From Promethearchaeota archaeon (GTDB lineage: Archaea; Asgardarchaeota; Odinarchaeia; Odinarchaeales; JBHLKK01): 32,000 nucleotides of DNA. A program made the translations under genes and the position numbers. Of this stretch, positions 2,862 through 25,194 are shown in pieces. Below the pieces are notes generated by a model. It saw only the letters and a list, made by a program, of their open reading frames with translations. It had not been told where the DNA came from and did no database searches. The first letter of the stretch is position 1; the number at the start of each line of letters is the position of its first letter. The DNA is taken from contig JBHLPL010000003.1 in assembly GCA_048939465.1 (NCBI GenBank), positions 20,142 to 52,141 of the forward strand, given 5' to 3'.

Positions 2862-3566
2862 CTATTCATCAAACAATATCTTGGTACCAATTTCTTCGCC
2901 CTTAACTGCTTTTATGACATTTTCAGGATTCCTTCCGTCGATAATCATAGTTGGAATACGAGATCTCTGTACGATTTTTATAGCCAAAGTATCAAACAAA
3001 GCATATTTGCCAGCCTCCTCAGTTTCAGATTTTAGGATATTGGAGAGCTGTTCAGCCGTTACTTCTTTTAGCAGTTTTGCCTCAGGATCTTTCTTTGGTG
3101 GTTTTGAGTAGACTCCCTCAACGTCTGTCGCGTTTATTAGTAAATCGACGTTCAGGAATTCCGCTAGAAGAGCAGCCACAGCATTCGTAGATTGACCTGC
3201 TTGAGTGCCTCCCATTACTATCGCTTTCCCGATACTCGATATTTTGCGTGCATCTTCAAAGCTTTCAGCAGGTTCGGGATAGGCATCATCGTTGAGAGCA
3301 GCGATCAAAACACGAGCGTTTAGGCGAGAGACCATGATTCCGATCTCATCACAAATAGCTTCTGATGCTCCTAGGCTGCGGAGTACAGAAATATATGTTC
3401 TCGCGATTTTTCCACCACCAACAACAACGTGAGCGACATTACCTTCAGACCACAGTTTTCTTAGGACCTCGCCATATCGCTTTATTAGGGAAAGATTTAT
3501 TTCGCCATTCTTGTCTTCAATCAATGAGCCTCCAAGTTTGATTACAACCTTCACACTAATCACCAA
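2862..3566 (-). CDS. pyrH: Uridylate kinase (archaeal)
   Basis: VIKLGGS, VVVGGGKIAR, GQSTNAVAA, NATDVEGVY motifs. Confidence 0.95.
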   Translation of the reverse strand: MVISVKVVIKLGGSLIEDKNGEINLSLIKRYGEVLRKLWSEGNVAHVVVGGGKIARTYISVLRSLGASEAICDEIGIMVSRLNARVLIAALNDDAYPEPAESFEDARKISSIGKAIVMGGTQAGQSTNAVAALLAEFLNVDLLINATDVEGVYSKPPKKDPEAKLLKEVTAEQLSNILKSETEEAGKYALFDTLAIKIVQRSRIPTMIIDGRNPENVIKAVKGEEIGTKILFDE

Positions 3567-3695
3567 GTTTGCGGTTAGAGAAGTTTTTATGTCAAAACTT
3601 ATAAGCCTACCTCGTGAAACTCTAAATCAAACGATTCACACAGACCTCATGTGCTTGCTGGGGATGTAAAAGCCGCTCCTGAGAGGTGTTAACAG

Positions 3696-4946
3696 TTGTC
3701 AGATGCAAAATCCTTCCAGAAGTTTCGACTGAAGAGGATGTTGGAATTGCTGGAAGGTAAAAAAGGATATCATACAGAGCTCGTGTCATTGTATATACCG
3801 CCAGGTAGACAGCTGAGCGATGTGACAAACTACCTAAAGCAGGAATACGGTACCGCTTCTAATATCAAATCCAAATCAACACGAAAGAATGTTATGGACT
3901 CCATTACCAGCGTGATTCAAAGACTCAAGACGATCGAGGAGACTCCACAAACAGGACTCGTTATTTTTTGTGGAGCAATTCCGCAAAATGGTCAAGGAAC
4001 TGAGAGAATAGAGCAGTACGTCATTGTTCCACCAGAGCCTATTAATGTCTTCAAATATCATTGTGATAGCGACTTCTTCTTAGACCCATTAAAGGAGTTG
4101 CTGAAAGAGAGGGGAGCATACGGATTGATGATTATTGATAGAGGTGGGGCCACCTACGCAATACTGAGAGGGAAGCATCTGGAAATTGTCCGCGACATAT
4201 CATCGGGGGTGCCAAGGAAGCAGGACGCAGGAGGCCAGTCCCAAAGGAGATTTGAGAGAATTGTCGAACAGGTAGCCCATGAGTTTTACGTAAGAGCGGG
4301 AGAGTATGCGAATGACATATTCTTACAAACTCCAGACCTCAAGGGTTTAATAATAGGAGGCCCCGGCCCTACCAAAGAGAAATTCGCCGACGGGGGATAT
4401 CTTGATTACAGATTGAAGGATAAGATTATCGCAGTACTTGATGTTGGGTATACCGAAGAGATGGGAGTAAAGGAACTATTAGGAAGAGCTAGCACGATAC
4501 TGAAAAGCGTAAGATATATGGAAGAGAAAGCAGTTGTTCAAGAATTCCTAAGTCATCTTGCCAGAGATACAGGACTGGCTGCCTACGGCGAGAAAGAAGT
4601 CAGAACATACCTTAGACAGGGTATAGTAGGGGTTCTTTTGCTTTCTGAGGGGCTAGATATGACTAGAGCCACTATCGAGTGTCCGCAGTGTGATTATAGG
4701 CTGCAAAAGACCTTGAAAAGGAATGAATTAGAAGAGTTGGAAAAGGAGATAACTGAAAATACCTGTCCCGAGTGTAATAGTTCTAAGCTGAACATAGAAG
4801 CCGTTAATATTATAGAGGAGTTAGGAGAATTAGCAGAGCAAACTGGAACAAGAGTAGAATTAATATCTACCGAAACTGAAGAGGGTGTAGAATTGCTAAA
4901 CTTAGGCGGAATAGCCGCCGTGTTAAGGTTCAAACCCGGGTCTTGA
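3696..4946 (+). CDS. prf1: Peptide chain release factor aRF1
   Basis: NIKS, YHCDSDF and GGQS motifs; C-terminal CPQC...CPEC Zn ribbon. Confidence 0.97.
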   Translation: MSDAKSFQKFRLKRMLELLEGKKGYHTELVSLYIPPGRQLSDVTNYLKQEYGTASNIKSKSTRKNVMDSITSVIQRLKTIEETPQTGLVIFCGAIPQNGQGTERIEQYVIVPPEPINVFKYHCDSDFFLDPLKELLKERGAYGLMIIDRGGATYAILRGKHLEIVRDISSGVPRKQDAGGQSQRRFERIVEQVAHEFYVRAGEYANDIFLQTPDLKGLIIGGPGPTKEKFADGGYLDYRLKDKIIAVLDVGYTEEMGVKELLGRASTILKSVRYMEEKAVVQEFLSHLARDTGLAAYGEKEVRTYLRQGIVGVLLLSEGLDMTRATIECPQCDYRLQKTLKRNELEELEKEITENTCPECNSSKLNIEAVNIIEELGELAEQTGTRVELISTETEEGVELLNLGGIAAVLRFKPGS

Positions 4947-4960
4947 GATGGTGACAAGAT

Positions 4961-5893
4961 TTGAATGATGAAGCTGTCAACAAGTTTGAACAGGAAGTCA
5001 ACATGCGTGTTGATGAGGTTGCGCGTGCCAAAACGATATCTGAGGCAGAAAGCAGTATTGAGAGAGTTCAGAATACGCTAGGACAACTACTGGAGGTATA
5101 CAATGAGAGGAATGACCGAGTAAAGTCAAAACTGGCCCAGGCAAGAATAAAATCATGGGATAGCTATCTCCAATACATCAAAGGAAAGAGAGATTTGATC
5201 AAAATAGGGGTTGCGAATGAAAGAGGACAGTTCTCAGTAGGCTTTCAAAGGAAGAAGCTTGTTATTGGAGGCGCTAAGAAATATAAGATTCAACCAGAAG
5301 ATATGATTTCAAGGATCAAGCTAAGTGGAGTATTTCTTGATATGCTGAGAAATACAAAACTGAGCCAAGAGAAAATGACAGAGGCCATAAAAGCAGCCTA
5401 TAAACTTTGTGTGCAAACCCAAGACCAGGATCTCTCCAAATTCTGCGAACGGCTAATTCAGAACTGGGCAAGGATTTCCATCGAATGGAAGATAGAGCTG
5501 CTTTCAATAGCCACAATAACTGCAATACTCAAAGGAGAAAAGGACGAAGTAAATGCATTAGTAGACAAACATTTGGATCTTGCATCTCAACTAAAGGCTC
5601 TTAACACGGGACAAAAAGAACAACCAATAAGTCTACTCGACGAGAGAGTTTTTAGGGAGATTTTCGGTTTCTTAAATGCGAAATATTTTGGTTTAACAGA
5701 CCAGCGCGGGGGGATTATTAGAAAAGGATGGGGCAGGGAAATGAAGGGGTTCCTGGAGCTAGCCGAGCCTATAAAAGATATTTCGATACCAGAGTTCGTG
5801 CTTAATTTACAATTAAAGGAGTTTTTCCCGAAAGTACTCTTACAGAATAAAAAAAAAGCGGAATACTCCATAAAGATTGAAGGAGAAGACTAA
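4961..5893 (+). CDS. Hypothetical protein, probably largely alpha-helical
   Basis: 310-codon ORF 14 nt after prf1; GGTGA RBS before TTG; no motif recognised. Confidence 0.7.
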   Translation: MNDEAVNKFEQEVNMRVDEVARAKTISEAESSIERVQNTLGQLLEVYNERNDRVKSKLAQARIKSWDSYLQYIKGKRDLIKIGVANERGQFSVGFQRKKLVIGGAKKYKIQPEDMISRIKLSGVFLDMLRNTKLSQEKMTEAIKAAYKLCVQTQDQDLSKFCERLIQNWARISIEWKIELLSIATITAILKGEKDEVNALVDKHLDLASQLKALNTGQKEQPISLLDERVFREIFGFLNAKYFGLTDQRGGIIRKGWGREMKGFLELAEPIKDISIPEFVLNLQLKEFFPKVLLQNKKKAEYSIKIEGED

Positions 5894-21794: not shown

Positions 21795-23321
21795 CTAGGG
21801 GGGTATTCGCTTCTTCATATCATTGAGCTTTGTCCGTATAATCTGGTTTGTAAGTTGTGGATCTACCCTGCCTTTAGTTTTTTTCATAACCTGTCCGATC
21901 AAGTAGTTTACCGCACTTTCCTCGGACAATGCATCTTCTACGGCTTCGGGAAACTCGGTGAAAACCTCATCGATTACTGTATTGATTTCTTCCTCATCGC
22001 TGATTATTGTCAATCCCCTGTCCCTAACGATTTCTGCCGGATGCTTTCCAGTTCGTACCATCTCCGGCAAGATGCTTTTGGCAATCTTCCCACTGATGAC
22101 GCCCTCATCTATCAGACGCAGAAGATCAATGAGACCTTGCGTCGTTATTTTGGATTCGTTTATCTCTAAACCAGTTTCGTTTAGGTTTCTAAGCAAATCA
22201 CCCATGATCCAGTTGCTAATCCGCTTTGAATTCGGATAGAGTTTTACACTTTCCTCAAAGAAATCCGCAAGTTGTTTACTGCCTGTGAGTACAACTGCAT
22301 CATGTTTAGGCAATTTATATTCCTTCATAAGTCGAGTGCGTCTCGCGTCTGGCAGTTCGGGCATTAGTTCTTCGGCTTCCTCGATCATTTCTTTTGTAAT
22401 GTCTATAGGTACCAGATCTGGTTCAGGGAAATAGCGATAGTCCTGCTCCGTCTCCTTGGTTCTCAGCGAAATCGTAATCCTGCGAGCCTCGTCCCAGTGT
22501 CGTGTTTCTTGCTTTACACTCACACCTCTTCTTAGTAATTGCTTCTGCCGAAGTATCTCATACTGAATCGCACGCCTTACCTCTTTGAAAGAAGAAACGT
22601 TTTTGATTTCTACTCTTTTTCCTCCAGCCAGAGATATATTGGTATCACATCTCATTGCTCCAGGTAGACTGCCATCAGATATTCCCAGATGTTCAATAAT
22701 GGAGCGTAATTTGCGAAGGAATGTTTGCGCTTCTTCAGGAGAACGCATATCTGGTTCAGTAACCACCTCTAGGAGAGCCATACCGGCACGATTATAATCT
22801 ATTAGGGCATAAGGAGACGTCTCAATAGAACCGAAATATGTAATGCGGGCCGGATCTTCTTCTAAGTGCATACGACTTATTCTGATTTTTTTGGATCTTC
22901 CATCTATATGTATTGTTACATAGCCGTTTTCGGCGAGGGCAACTCCGCCAACTCTATCATACTGACTTATTTGGAAGTTCTTTGGCATGTCAGGATAGTA
23001 GTAATTCTTCCTGAAAAAGAGCAATGTATTCGAAATCTTGGCATTCAAAGCCAAAGCTGCCATAATAGCATATTTTATGACTTCTTTGTTTACAACAGGA
23101 AGAGAACCAGGAAGTCCTATACAAGTGGGGCATACCAGTGTATTTGGCTCTTTTCCGTGATAATCGGCAGAGCAACTACAGAACAGCTTGGTTTTGAGGG
23201 TTGTAAGTTGAATATGGCATTCAAGACCTATTATTACAGTCTTTTCAACCTTTTTAGGGTCGGTTTCTTCCATTTTGATCCACATTCTCTTTCTTTTTTC
23301 ACCCTTCCTCGTGATTTTCAT
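21795..23321 (-). CDS. gatB: Asp/Glu-tRNA amidotransferase subunit B
   Basis: [60 protein letters not shown] overlap with the gatA stop; alternative start 23273. Confidence 0.97.
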
Positions 23322-24839
23322 AGAGTAGGCTTGATTTTTCTTCTTAGACCTTTTCTTTCAAAAGCATAGGCAACTCTCAGTATAATATTTTCCTTTAGGA
23401 AGTTTCCCATGATTTGTATGCCAATCGGAAGACTGCCATGGTAGCCGCAAGGCATAGAAAGTGCAGGAATACCTGCAAGATTTATTGCTGCCGTATCCAT
23501 ATCTGCCATATACATTTGAAGAGGATTTACTGTCCGCTCGCCTATCTTAAATGCCATTACAGGCGAGGTTGGACCAATCAGTACGTCAAACTTGCTGAAC
23601 GCTTGCTCAAAATCTTGCTTTATCAATGTACGGATTTTAAGGGCCTTCAGATAGTACAGGTCAAAATAACCTGCGGTTAAGGCATATGTTCCCAACATAA
23701 TTCGCCGTGTAACCTCCTGTCCAAAGCCTTCACGCCTACTCTCTGAGAATACTTTATTCCAGTCTCCAATTGCTTTCGCCCTAAGTCCGTATCTTATGCC
23801 ATCATATCTTGCCAAATTGGAGCTTGCTTCAGACATTGCAATAATGAAATAGGTGGGAATTGAATACCTTATGTGAGCCAATGAGACTTCTTCATACGAT
23901 GCTCCCAAGTTTTCCAGAGCATGTATTGCATTCCATACGCTTTTGGCAACTATTTCATCAGTGCCCTCGCCAAAGAATTCTTTCAGAACACCTATTTTGA
24001 TGCCTTTTACATCATCTTTAAGGAACTTCAGATAGTCCCCAGATTTGACTTTGAGGGTCGTACTATCTTTAGGATCGTAACGAGCGACTTCACCTAGAAG
24101 AAGAGCACAGTCGTTTACATCCTTGGTCACTGGACCGATCTGTTCCAGACTACATGCAAACGCAATTAAGCCATAGCGGCTAACCAATCCATATGTTGTT
24201 TTTAGTCCGACAACGCCGCACAAGCTTGCTGGCTGCCTAATGCCTTTGGCTGTACGCTTATCTACGTACAGTTTCCACCAGTATCGCTCCCTAGAGCGAG
24301 AATTGTCTCATCGGCAGCCACTGCAGCAGCACTCCCGCCAGATGATCCACCAGGAACTCTTGAGAGATCGTAAGGATTATACGTCGGCCCAAAATAGCTA
24401 TACTCAGTGGACGAGCCCCTTGCTAATCCTCACCGCGTAAGTGAGGATTTATCGCAAACTCGTCCATATTTGTCTTTCCTATGATTATACCGTCCTGCTG
24501 TTTAATGCGTTCAACCACGGTCGCATCATACGGAGGAATATAATTCTCTAACATATGAGATGCACAGGTTGTTCGGACTCCCAGAGTACATATGTTATCT
24601 TTAAACGCTATTGGAATGCCAGCTAGAGTACCTACGGGTTCATTTCCTCCAATCCTCTTATCGATCTCCTTAGCTTTTTTGGCTGCGGCTTCTCTCGTTA
24701 GGGTTACATACGCATTAATCCTGTCCTCGACTCTGTCTATCCTATCGAAAACGGCCGAAGTGAGTTCTTCTGCGGATATTTCCTGACTGAGTATTTTCTC
24801 CTTGAGTTCATGGGCGGTTAATTCATTCAGTTTTGCCAA
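23318..24839 (-). CDS. gatA: Glu/Asp-tRNA amidotransferase subunit A, three exons: 24839-24451, 24418-24273, 24243-23318 (486 aa)
   Basis: Spliced length 389+146+926=1461 nt=487 codons. Restores [29 protein letters not shown] and [17 protein letters not shown]; GAGGTGA RBS before TTG. Confidence 0.93.
24244..24272 (-). other. gatA intron 2 (29 nt, BHB type)
   Basis: A-CTGTACG-TAGATAAG-CGTACAG-CCAA-AG; helix GTGG/CCAA, bulges AAA and AGG; removal yields GGA A|GC ATT (G-S-I). Confidence 0.88.
24419..24450 (-). other. gatA intron 1 (32 nt, BHB type)
   Basis: A-AATCCTCAC-TTACGCG-GTGAGGATT-AGCA-AG; helix TGCG/AGCA, bulges ATA and AGG, 10-bp exon stem; removal yields GCG AT|G GGC (A-M-G). Confidence 0.9.
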
Positions 24840-24852
24840 TCGGATTCACCTC

Positions 24853-25143
24853 TTAGATCATTTTGGGACCCTTAATGAAGTTTTTTTCCTTTTCTGGAGC
24901 ATTCATCAGAGCGGCTTCTACGGGTAAGCATTCTTTTGGAGTATCGTCTCGATAGACATTCTTCGAGCCAGTGACATGGTATGTAGGCTCGACGTCTGAA
25001 GTGTCAACCTCATCGATTTCCCTGAAGTACTCCAAAATGTCATTGAACTGTGCGGTGAAAAGGTGTTTTTGTTCCTCAGTTAATTTGATTCTCGCCAACC
25101 ATGCGATGTGCTCCACTTGTTCTTTTGTTATATGGGATTTCAT
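24853..25143 (-). CDS. gatC: Asp/Glu-tRNA amidotransferase subunit C
   Basis: ITKEQVEHIAWLARIKL, YRDD, NAPE..FIKGPK; start ATG 25143 after GGTGGTG. Confidence 0.95.
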   Translation of the reverse strand: MKSHITKEQVEHIAWLARIKLTEEQKHLFTAQFNDILEYFREIDEVDTSDVEPTYHVTGSKNVYRDDTPKECLPVEAALMNAPEKEKNFIKGPKMI

Positions 25144-25194
25144 AATACACCACCAAGAATTGCCCGTTAGGCAATGATAGGAATGTTCAAACAT

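Follow-up and report, generated by a model that had tools for sequence, protein, structure and literature searches.

A 2023 review counted two archaeal mRNAs as substrates of the splicing endonuclease and expected that more would follow (PMC10485636). The closest described system to the one considered here is the intron of the pseudouridine synthase gene cbf5 in the Desulfurococcales and Sulfolobales of the Crenarchaeota, an insert of 16-44 nt that lies within the coding sequence and contains no ORF (PMC2738675). This intron forms a relaxed version of the BHB motif, in which bulges flank a central helix; it is cut between the second and third bulge residues, has been linked to a hetero-oligomeric EndA endonuclease, occupies one site across orders and splits the codon of the catalytic Asp after its first letter (PMC2738675). 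In the papers searched, endonuclease splicing inside an archaeal coding sequence has been documented for cbf5 only. The same intron is reportedly also treated in Watanabe 2002 and Yoshinari 2006.

The locus analyzed here, gatA of an Asgard archaeon assigned to the Odinarchaeales, compares closely with cbf5. Its second insert, of 29 nt, belongs to the same size class, follows the same cut rule, interrupts the codon of a catalytic residue in the same phase and shares the link to a hetero-oligomeric endonuclease. This insert is very probably an ancient BHB intron in the gatA mRNA for which endonuclease splicing is obligatory. The two cases differ in that gatA encodes a tRNA-dependent amidotransferase and the host is an Asgard archaeon, not a member of the Thermoproteota, and in that gatA has two introns in a host with at least eight other interrupted protein genes. 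Moreover, splicing of cbf5 was demonstrated by cDNA and in vitro cleavage, whereas that of gatA is predicted from DNA sequence.

More distant systems share single elements with this locus. In HAC1/XBP1 splicing (IRE1 with RtcB or Trl1), a short mRNA intron is cut at stem-loops, a tRNA ligase joins the ends and the reading frame changes. The pairing of a protein endonuclease with a tRNA ligase is what is proposed for gatA, but the IRE1 nuclease recognizes a different motif and operates as a regulated stress switch. The HVO_1309 intron of Haloferax volcanii reportedly lies in the 5' UTR, in a host whose alpha2 enzyme is said to need a strict motif, whereas gatA presents a relaxed motif within coding sequence. 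Cutting of a BHB in the HVO_1309 mRNA by the archaeal splicing endonuclease has been described (PMC7714728; PMC10485636). Introns of the BHB type in pre-tRNAs are unusually dense and non-canonical in some Asgard classes (PMC11291895; bioRxiv 10.64898/2026.10.13.758758). They have the same geometry and predicted enzymes as the gatA insert, a similar size and A-rich bulges, but in gatA the exon half of the motif also encodes Gly-Gly-Ser and a base-exact cut is needed to keep the frame. The papers on Asgard intron richness concern tRNA introns only (PMC11291895; bioRxiv 10.64898/2026.10.13.758758), and no report of BHB introns in Asgard protein genes was found in the literature searched.

If spliced as predicted, gatA would add to a very small class an essential translation gene with two such introns, one of which has persisted at a catalytic Ser codon from the common ancestor of an Asgard order onwards. 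It would also place mRNA splicing by protein enzymes, with base-exact restoration of the frame, in the closest prokaryotic relatives of eukaryotes, and it would offer a concrete substrate for probing how much BHB relaxation the Asgard endonuclease accepts. Gene callers split or truncate genes of this kind, so that metabolic reconstructions from Asgard MAGs will wrongly score them as missing or broken.

Organization of the gatA Locus

The window, meaning the whole stretch of 32,000 nt that was analyzed (GCA_048939465.1, contig JBHLPL010000003.1, positions 20,142 to 52,141), belongs to a 1.96-Mb MAG of 152 contigs that is 91% complete. The gene occupies positions 23318-24839 of the window on the minus strand and contains two short inserts, of 32 nt (24419-24450) and 29 nt (24244-24272). 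A plain ORF list cuts it into three separate ORFs; removal of both inserts yields one open frame of 486 aa, a GatA protein with all amidase-signature motifs. Exon 1 (24451..24839) runs from a TTG start codon at 24839 to the AU of the Met130 codon, within an ORF at 24423-24839, and carries Lys80 in the motif AFKDN. Intron 1 (24419..24450) splits Met130 as AU^G. Exon 2 (24273..24418; 146 nt) extends from the G of Met130 to the first A of the Ser179 codon and contains the GGSSGGS motif with cis-Ser155, and intron 2 (24244..24272) separates it from exon 3 (23318..24243), which begins with the GC of Ser179 and ends with the stop codon at 23318-23320.

The gene is present in a single copy and has an operon context on the minus strand, flanked by gatC-like and gatB ORFs. 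Downstream, at 21795..23321, a 508-aa ORF with weak gatE-family matches overlaps the gatA stop by 4 nt; we take it to be gatB, following the label of the original prediction and our own reading of the sequence. Directly upstream lies a small ORF (24853..25143, within the ORF at 24853-25194) whose start is the Met of MKSHITKEQ and which, from its resemblance to GatC, is presumably gatC-like.

Anatomy and Predicted Cut Site of Intron 2

In the RNA of the minus strand, the surroundings of intron 2 read GGU GGA A^ACUGUACGUAGAUAAGCGUACAGCCAAAG^GC AUU AGG, with carets at the two cut sites. On the exon side, the central helix is formed by GUGG (24275..24278), which is drawn from the Gly codons GGU GGA and pairs with CCAA (24249-24246) in the intron, giving three standard pairs and a G.A mismatch in this genome. 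The 5' bulge is AA^A (24274-24272) and the 3' bulge AG^G (24245-24243), such that the intron consists of the third base of the 5' bulge, an inner hairpin, the CCAA and the first two bases of the 3' bulge. The inner stem, CUGUACG/CGUACAG (24271-24265 and 24256-24250), comprises 7 bp, or 8 when a U.G pair is counted, and its loop (24264-24257) includes a UAG that is in frame with exon 2 (GGA AAC UGU ACG UAG). All elements that had been predicted at the outset, namely the helix GTGG/CCAA, the two bulges, the 7-bp stem and the TAG in the loop, were thus recovered.

The position of the cut is set by the protein. The canonical cut, after the second base of each bulge, is the only one that yields AGC (Ser), and it also gives Ser and the correct frame in all seven related sequences. 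Moving the pair of cuts by -1 produces GGC (Gly) and by +1 AAC (Asn); the initial claim that AGC arises from the BHB cut only therefore stands. The frequency of motifs as good as that of intron 2 is 1.6e-3 per strand position across this genome, which makes it unlikely that a chance motif would fall in the single register that restores the protein.

Intron 2 is a relaxed, HBh'-like BHB and not a strict one, because of the G.A mismatch in its central helix and its weak outer exon-exon helix, which consists of 2 bp, a mismatch and 2 bp and is not conserved in register. Unconstrained minimum free energy folding recovers the inner hairpin together with three pairs of the central helix, with a z-score of only -1.9.

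The Split Codon Specifies the Predicted Nucleophile

In the spliced protein the catalytic triad is intact, with K80 in AFKDN, S155 in GGSSGGS and S179 in GGSIR. The first two match Lys79 and cis-Ser154 of Staphylococcus aureus GatA at an offset of +1. Exon 3 matches residues 179-474 of the S. aureus protein (2df4_A, E 7.6e-98), its first full codon aligning with residue 179. The codon that intron 2 divides between its first and second letters, Ser179, therefore corresponds to S. aureus Ser178, again with an offset of +1. That residue is the nucleophile, which forms a covalent intermediate with glutamine (PMC2330236). The alignment and the published assignment agree with the original prediction that intron 2 splits the codon of the nucleophilic Ser.

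The dN/dS of exon 3, downstream of the intron, is 0.09 between this genome and G002, which represent two species of one genus. This value indicates strong purifying selection on exon 3, whose frame is reachable only after excision of the intron.

Conservation of Intron 2 Among Relatives

Seven genomes of the order, from two families, were searched, and gatA was found in six. All six carry an insert at exactly the same place, between the A and the G of an AGY Ser codon, as does one metagenome contig (L182) that was added by a survey of 28 metagenomic gatA loci. The insert is absent and GSDTGGSIR unbroken in 12 other Asgard genomes and in the remaining 27 metagenome loci. Among relatives the length of intron 2 is 28, 29 or 30 nt, which covers all three frame classes, and every version introduces an in-frame stop or a frameshift; together these properties argue that the intron is not translated.

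The hairpin sequence differs almost wholly between the two families, while its pairing is retained. All alignment cells (100%) of the eight inner-stem pairs form standard pairs, and in five of these pairs both partners have changed. For the central helix the paired fraction of cells is 93%, and for the outer exon-exon helix 46%. When the partners were slid by 1-3 columns, pairing fell to 25-42%, and none of 500 shuffles matched the observed score. One of the substitutions involves both exon and intron: the pair between an exon U and an intron A in this genome is replaced by exon C and intron G in the other family, the exon change being synonymous at a Gly codon (GGU to GGC). In most members of that family the central helix has four pairs (G.U, C-G, G-C, G-C). 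About three independent lineages underlie the seven sequences, and the covariation rests on few events; its support for the predicted structure appears good, short of overwhelming.

Sequence at the splice sites is less constant than the structure. An initial A, a terminal AAG and the 3' bulge AGG had been proposed as common to the two introns. This holds in this genome but not in the relatives, among which G002, G003 and G004 have the bulge AA^G and the intron of G006 starts with U. Other introns of the present genome end in AA or AU, and the A...AAG pattern is no signature of these introns.

Intron 1

Intron 1 has a more regular motif. Its central helix, UGCG/AGCA, contains three pairs and a G.A mismatch, its bulges are AU^A and AG^G, and its inner stem has 10 bp; with a 10-bp exon-exon helix it is a textbook hBHBh' structure. 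The fold has a minimum free energy of -30.4 kcal/mol and a z-score of -5.5, and none of 200 shuffled sequences folded as well. Stem variants in metagenome strains keep the pairing, A-U being replaced by G.U and C-G by U.G.

This intron was found only in the genus to which the host belongs, with a length of 32 nt in the present genome and of 29 nt in G002. G003 lacks it, and the protein segment EFAMGSSTEY is unbroken there. Intron 1 is a later gain than intron 2, acquired within this genus. The two introns of gatA have only the letters of their bulges in common.

Splicing Enzymes and the Probable Need for GatCAB

The genome encodes enzymes that could carry out both steps of the reaction. Two EndA paralogues match PF01974 above the cut-off, at 103 and 77 bits, in ORFs of 204 and 191 aa, and the 204-aa protein looks catalytic when its sequence is inspected by eye. 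The presence of two paralogues fits the (alpha-beta)2 enzyme type that tolerates relaxed motifs, as has been reported for most Asgard genomes (bioRxiv 10.64898/2026.10.13.758758), and the pair found here probably represents it. Acceptance of relaxed HBh'-like motifs by (alpha-beta)2 and epsilon2 endonucleases is described in one report (PMC5829648). Two RtcB genes are present as matches to PF01139. One of them, at 2961-5708 on the minus strand of contig C31 (L102/L104), has a Pfam match in two parts, covering positions 1-57 and 45-426 with about 1.4 kb between them, inside a single open frame of 973 aa; this arrangement resembles that of a ligase interrupted by an intein.

This organism probably depends on GatCAB alone for Asn-tRNA(Asn), because no AsnRS match above the family cut-off was found in the 91%-complete genome. 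The only asnS-family match, most likely AspRS, falls below that cut-off. The genome does encode GatE.

The proposed pathway draws on the anatomy of the insert, on the protein that its removal restores exactly, on its conservation and covariation among relatives, on the purifying selection and on the presence of the enzymes. In the pre-mRNA, the GUGG at the end of exon 2 would pair with the CCAA close to the intron's 3' end, and the 7-8-bp intron hairpin would stack on this central helix, placing each splice site in a 3-nt bulge. EndA, probably as an (alpha-beta)2 enzyme, would cut after the second base of each bulge, and RtcB would join the exons to create the AGC codon for Ser179, which serves as nucleophile in the triad with Lys80 and cis-Ser155. 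Without splicing, translation would run to the UAG of the loop and give a dead fragment. Because the Ser is restored by the BHB cut only, splicing is predicted to be obligatory for an active enzyme, and removal of both introns would be obligatory for GatCAB activity. Intron 2 was probably acquired a single time, by the common ancestor of the order (probably the Odinarchaeales), and inherited vertically since then.

A broader version of this model would hold that EndA and RtcB constitute a true mRNA-splicing system in the Odinarchaeia branch, that ancient introns are kept preferentially in catalytic codons, and that gatA splicing is rate-limiting and couples the supply of Asn-tRNA and translational fidelity to the state of RNA processing. 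Taken as a whole, this extension is unlikely to be correct.

Alternative Explanations

The original prediction went further than obligatory splicing and viewed intron 2 as an on/off switch, by which control of splicing would turn GatCAB, and hence the supply of Asn-tRNA, on or off. Such a role would agree with the predicted dependence of activity on splicing, with the termination of unspliced RNA at the UAG, with the retention of intron 2 throughout the order and with the location of both introns at strongly conserved sites (see below). An obligatory step is not in itself a switch, however. Nothing is conserved beyond the BHB geometry, the length and the loop sequence drift freely, and there is no sign of a site for a regulator. 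Long retention is equally expected of a neutral intron whose loss requires a precise deletion, and similar introns occur in unrelated housekeeping genes. A regulatory function of intron 2 accordingly found no support and is considered quite improbable.

A mobile element that spreads to conserved sites, comparable to the ORF-bearing introns of archaeal rRNA, has been suggested as the origin of the intron. The gatA introns do sit at highly conserved codons, as does that of cbf5: when windows of seven residues are ranked by conservation over 80 GatA sequences, both introns fall in the top 8%, so the observation that conserved sites are targeted holds for gatA as a matter of placement, albeit in a small sample and with a detection procedure that favors conserved motifs. 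That intron 1 was gained later, in one genus, is also in keeping with mobility. Two ordinary causes of the placement can be thought of, however: introns are easier to detect at conserved positions, and codons that do not change, as at Gly-Gly, keep the exon half of the motif constant during evolution. In addition, a 29-nt insert has no ORF and is too small to encode an endonuclease, and the resemblance of the two gatA introns ends at their bulge letters. A search for similar sequences disclosed no other copy of either intron in the genome, blastn-short with intron 2 returning chance words of at most 14 nt. The distribution is not patchy but follows phylogeny, with intron 2 in every gatA located within the order and in none of the 12 Asgard genomes from outside it. 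Homing is therefore regarded as very improbable and is not adopted from the original prediction.

The interruption of gatA might also be spurious, the gene being a pseudogene or the insert an assembly error, as could be supposed for a gene in which callers see three ORFs within a MAG of 152 contigs. Contigs of four sequencing runs from three other studies nevertheless span both inserts without a gap over positions 23900-24700, and no intron-less gatA joint was seen in the DNA of these contigs. One of them, a 9.4-kb contig from mangrove, differs at one base in 801 nt, and two more diverged strains (6-10% different) retain intron 1. The independent contigs indicate that the insert is no assembly artefact and that no spliced form exists in DNA, and the insert is further present in seven sequences from two families. 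A decayed gene would be hard to reconcile with the low dN/dS downstream of the insert, with the triad and the 486-aa frame that are intact after excision, or with a single-copy gene in an operon with gatB. An explanation of this kind is scarcely credible.

Translational recoding without RNA cutting, either by ribosome bypass of the T4 gene 60 type or by frameshifting, has next to no probability: a hairpin with a stop after a GGA codon superficially resembles the gene 60 take-off site, but there is no in-frame matching GGA landing codon, the AGC codon does not exist until the RNA ends are joined, leaving the nucleophile without a source, and the take-off contexts of relatives differ (GGU A...) while the BHB is kept. 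Three other candidates were rejected outright, namely an enzyme made from separate pieces, neither of which would contain the nucleophile, an intein, since the 29 nt do not make up whole codons, and a group I or group II intron, for which the insert is far too short.

Similar Inserts Elsewhere in the Genome

The reading of intron 2 as an endonuclease-spliced intron gains support from a control that makes no use of the motif. ORF fragments of this genome (G000) were compared with G003, and pairs were kept that match one unbroken G003 frame with extra DNA between them. After one non-intron case had been set aside, seven inserts remained in six protein genes: gatA (intron 1), ahcY (two inserts) and the genes for EF-2, an aIF5B-like GTPase, a DRG GTPase and an mtaD-like amidohydrolase. 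In all seven, cutting after the second base of two 3-nt bulges that flank a 4-bp helix gives an exact alignment with G003. A joint search of the two genomes found introns shared with G003 at the same site in kae1 and in a radical-SAM gene, besides gatA intron 2. The comparison supports at least 11 such introns in nine protein genes, so that eight or more protein genes besides gatA carry inserts of this type. The interrupted genes lie on contigs C24 (ahcY), C68 (EF-2), C69 (aIF5B-like GTPase and kae1), C113 (DRG GTPase), C118 (mtaD-like) and C127 (radical SAM), with inserts of 22-31 nt.

A genome-wide census was less informative. Its BHB model required at least three of four central pairs and a contiguous inner stem, and was combined with the joining of ORFs. 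At loose settings the background was as large as the signal; at strict settings the canonical cut was modestly above shifted cuts (for example, 27 sites versus 16, and 72 versus about 52). The canonical-cut rule thus gives no strong genome-wide signal under this simple model, which misses imperfect inner stems (EF-2, aIF5B-like, DRG) and short exons (gatA intron 1, ahcY). A codon-usage score proved too weak as a filter, as it rejected both gatA introns, and validation by spanning HSPs against G003 was not specific. Under the joint two-genome criterion there was no overall enrichment, but the top hits, kae1, the radical-SAM gene and gatA, were convincing. As an estimate and not a result, the total for the genome is likelier to be a few tens than hundreds.

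Comparison with G003 also gave some 15 isolated in-frame stops, which were rejected, being mostly antisense or off-frame matches. A separate case was noted on the plus strand of contig C49 at about 11634, where an in-frame TAA interrupts a strongly conserved ORF with flanks that match at E 5e-73 and 5e-37, and G003 has TTA (Leu); a pseudogene, an error in the sequence and recoding are all conceivable here. In the window, a tRNA-Leu(CAA) on the minus strand at 2311-2420 (Rfam, 50 bits; no ARAGORN call) has 39 nt in its variable region, more than the variable arm of a tRNA-Leu requires and in keeping with a non-canonical intron at that place. Conversely, G003 carries at least one short insert of its own, 34 extra nt at about 882607-882636 (minus-strand coordinates) in a gene that is unbroken in the present genome (PPIHTEYILSGGA), which indicates that gains and losses differ between the two families.
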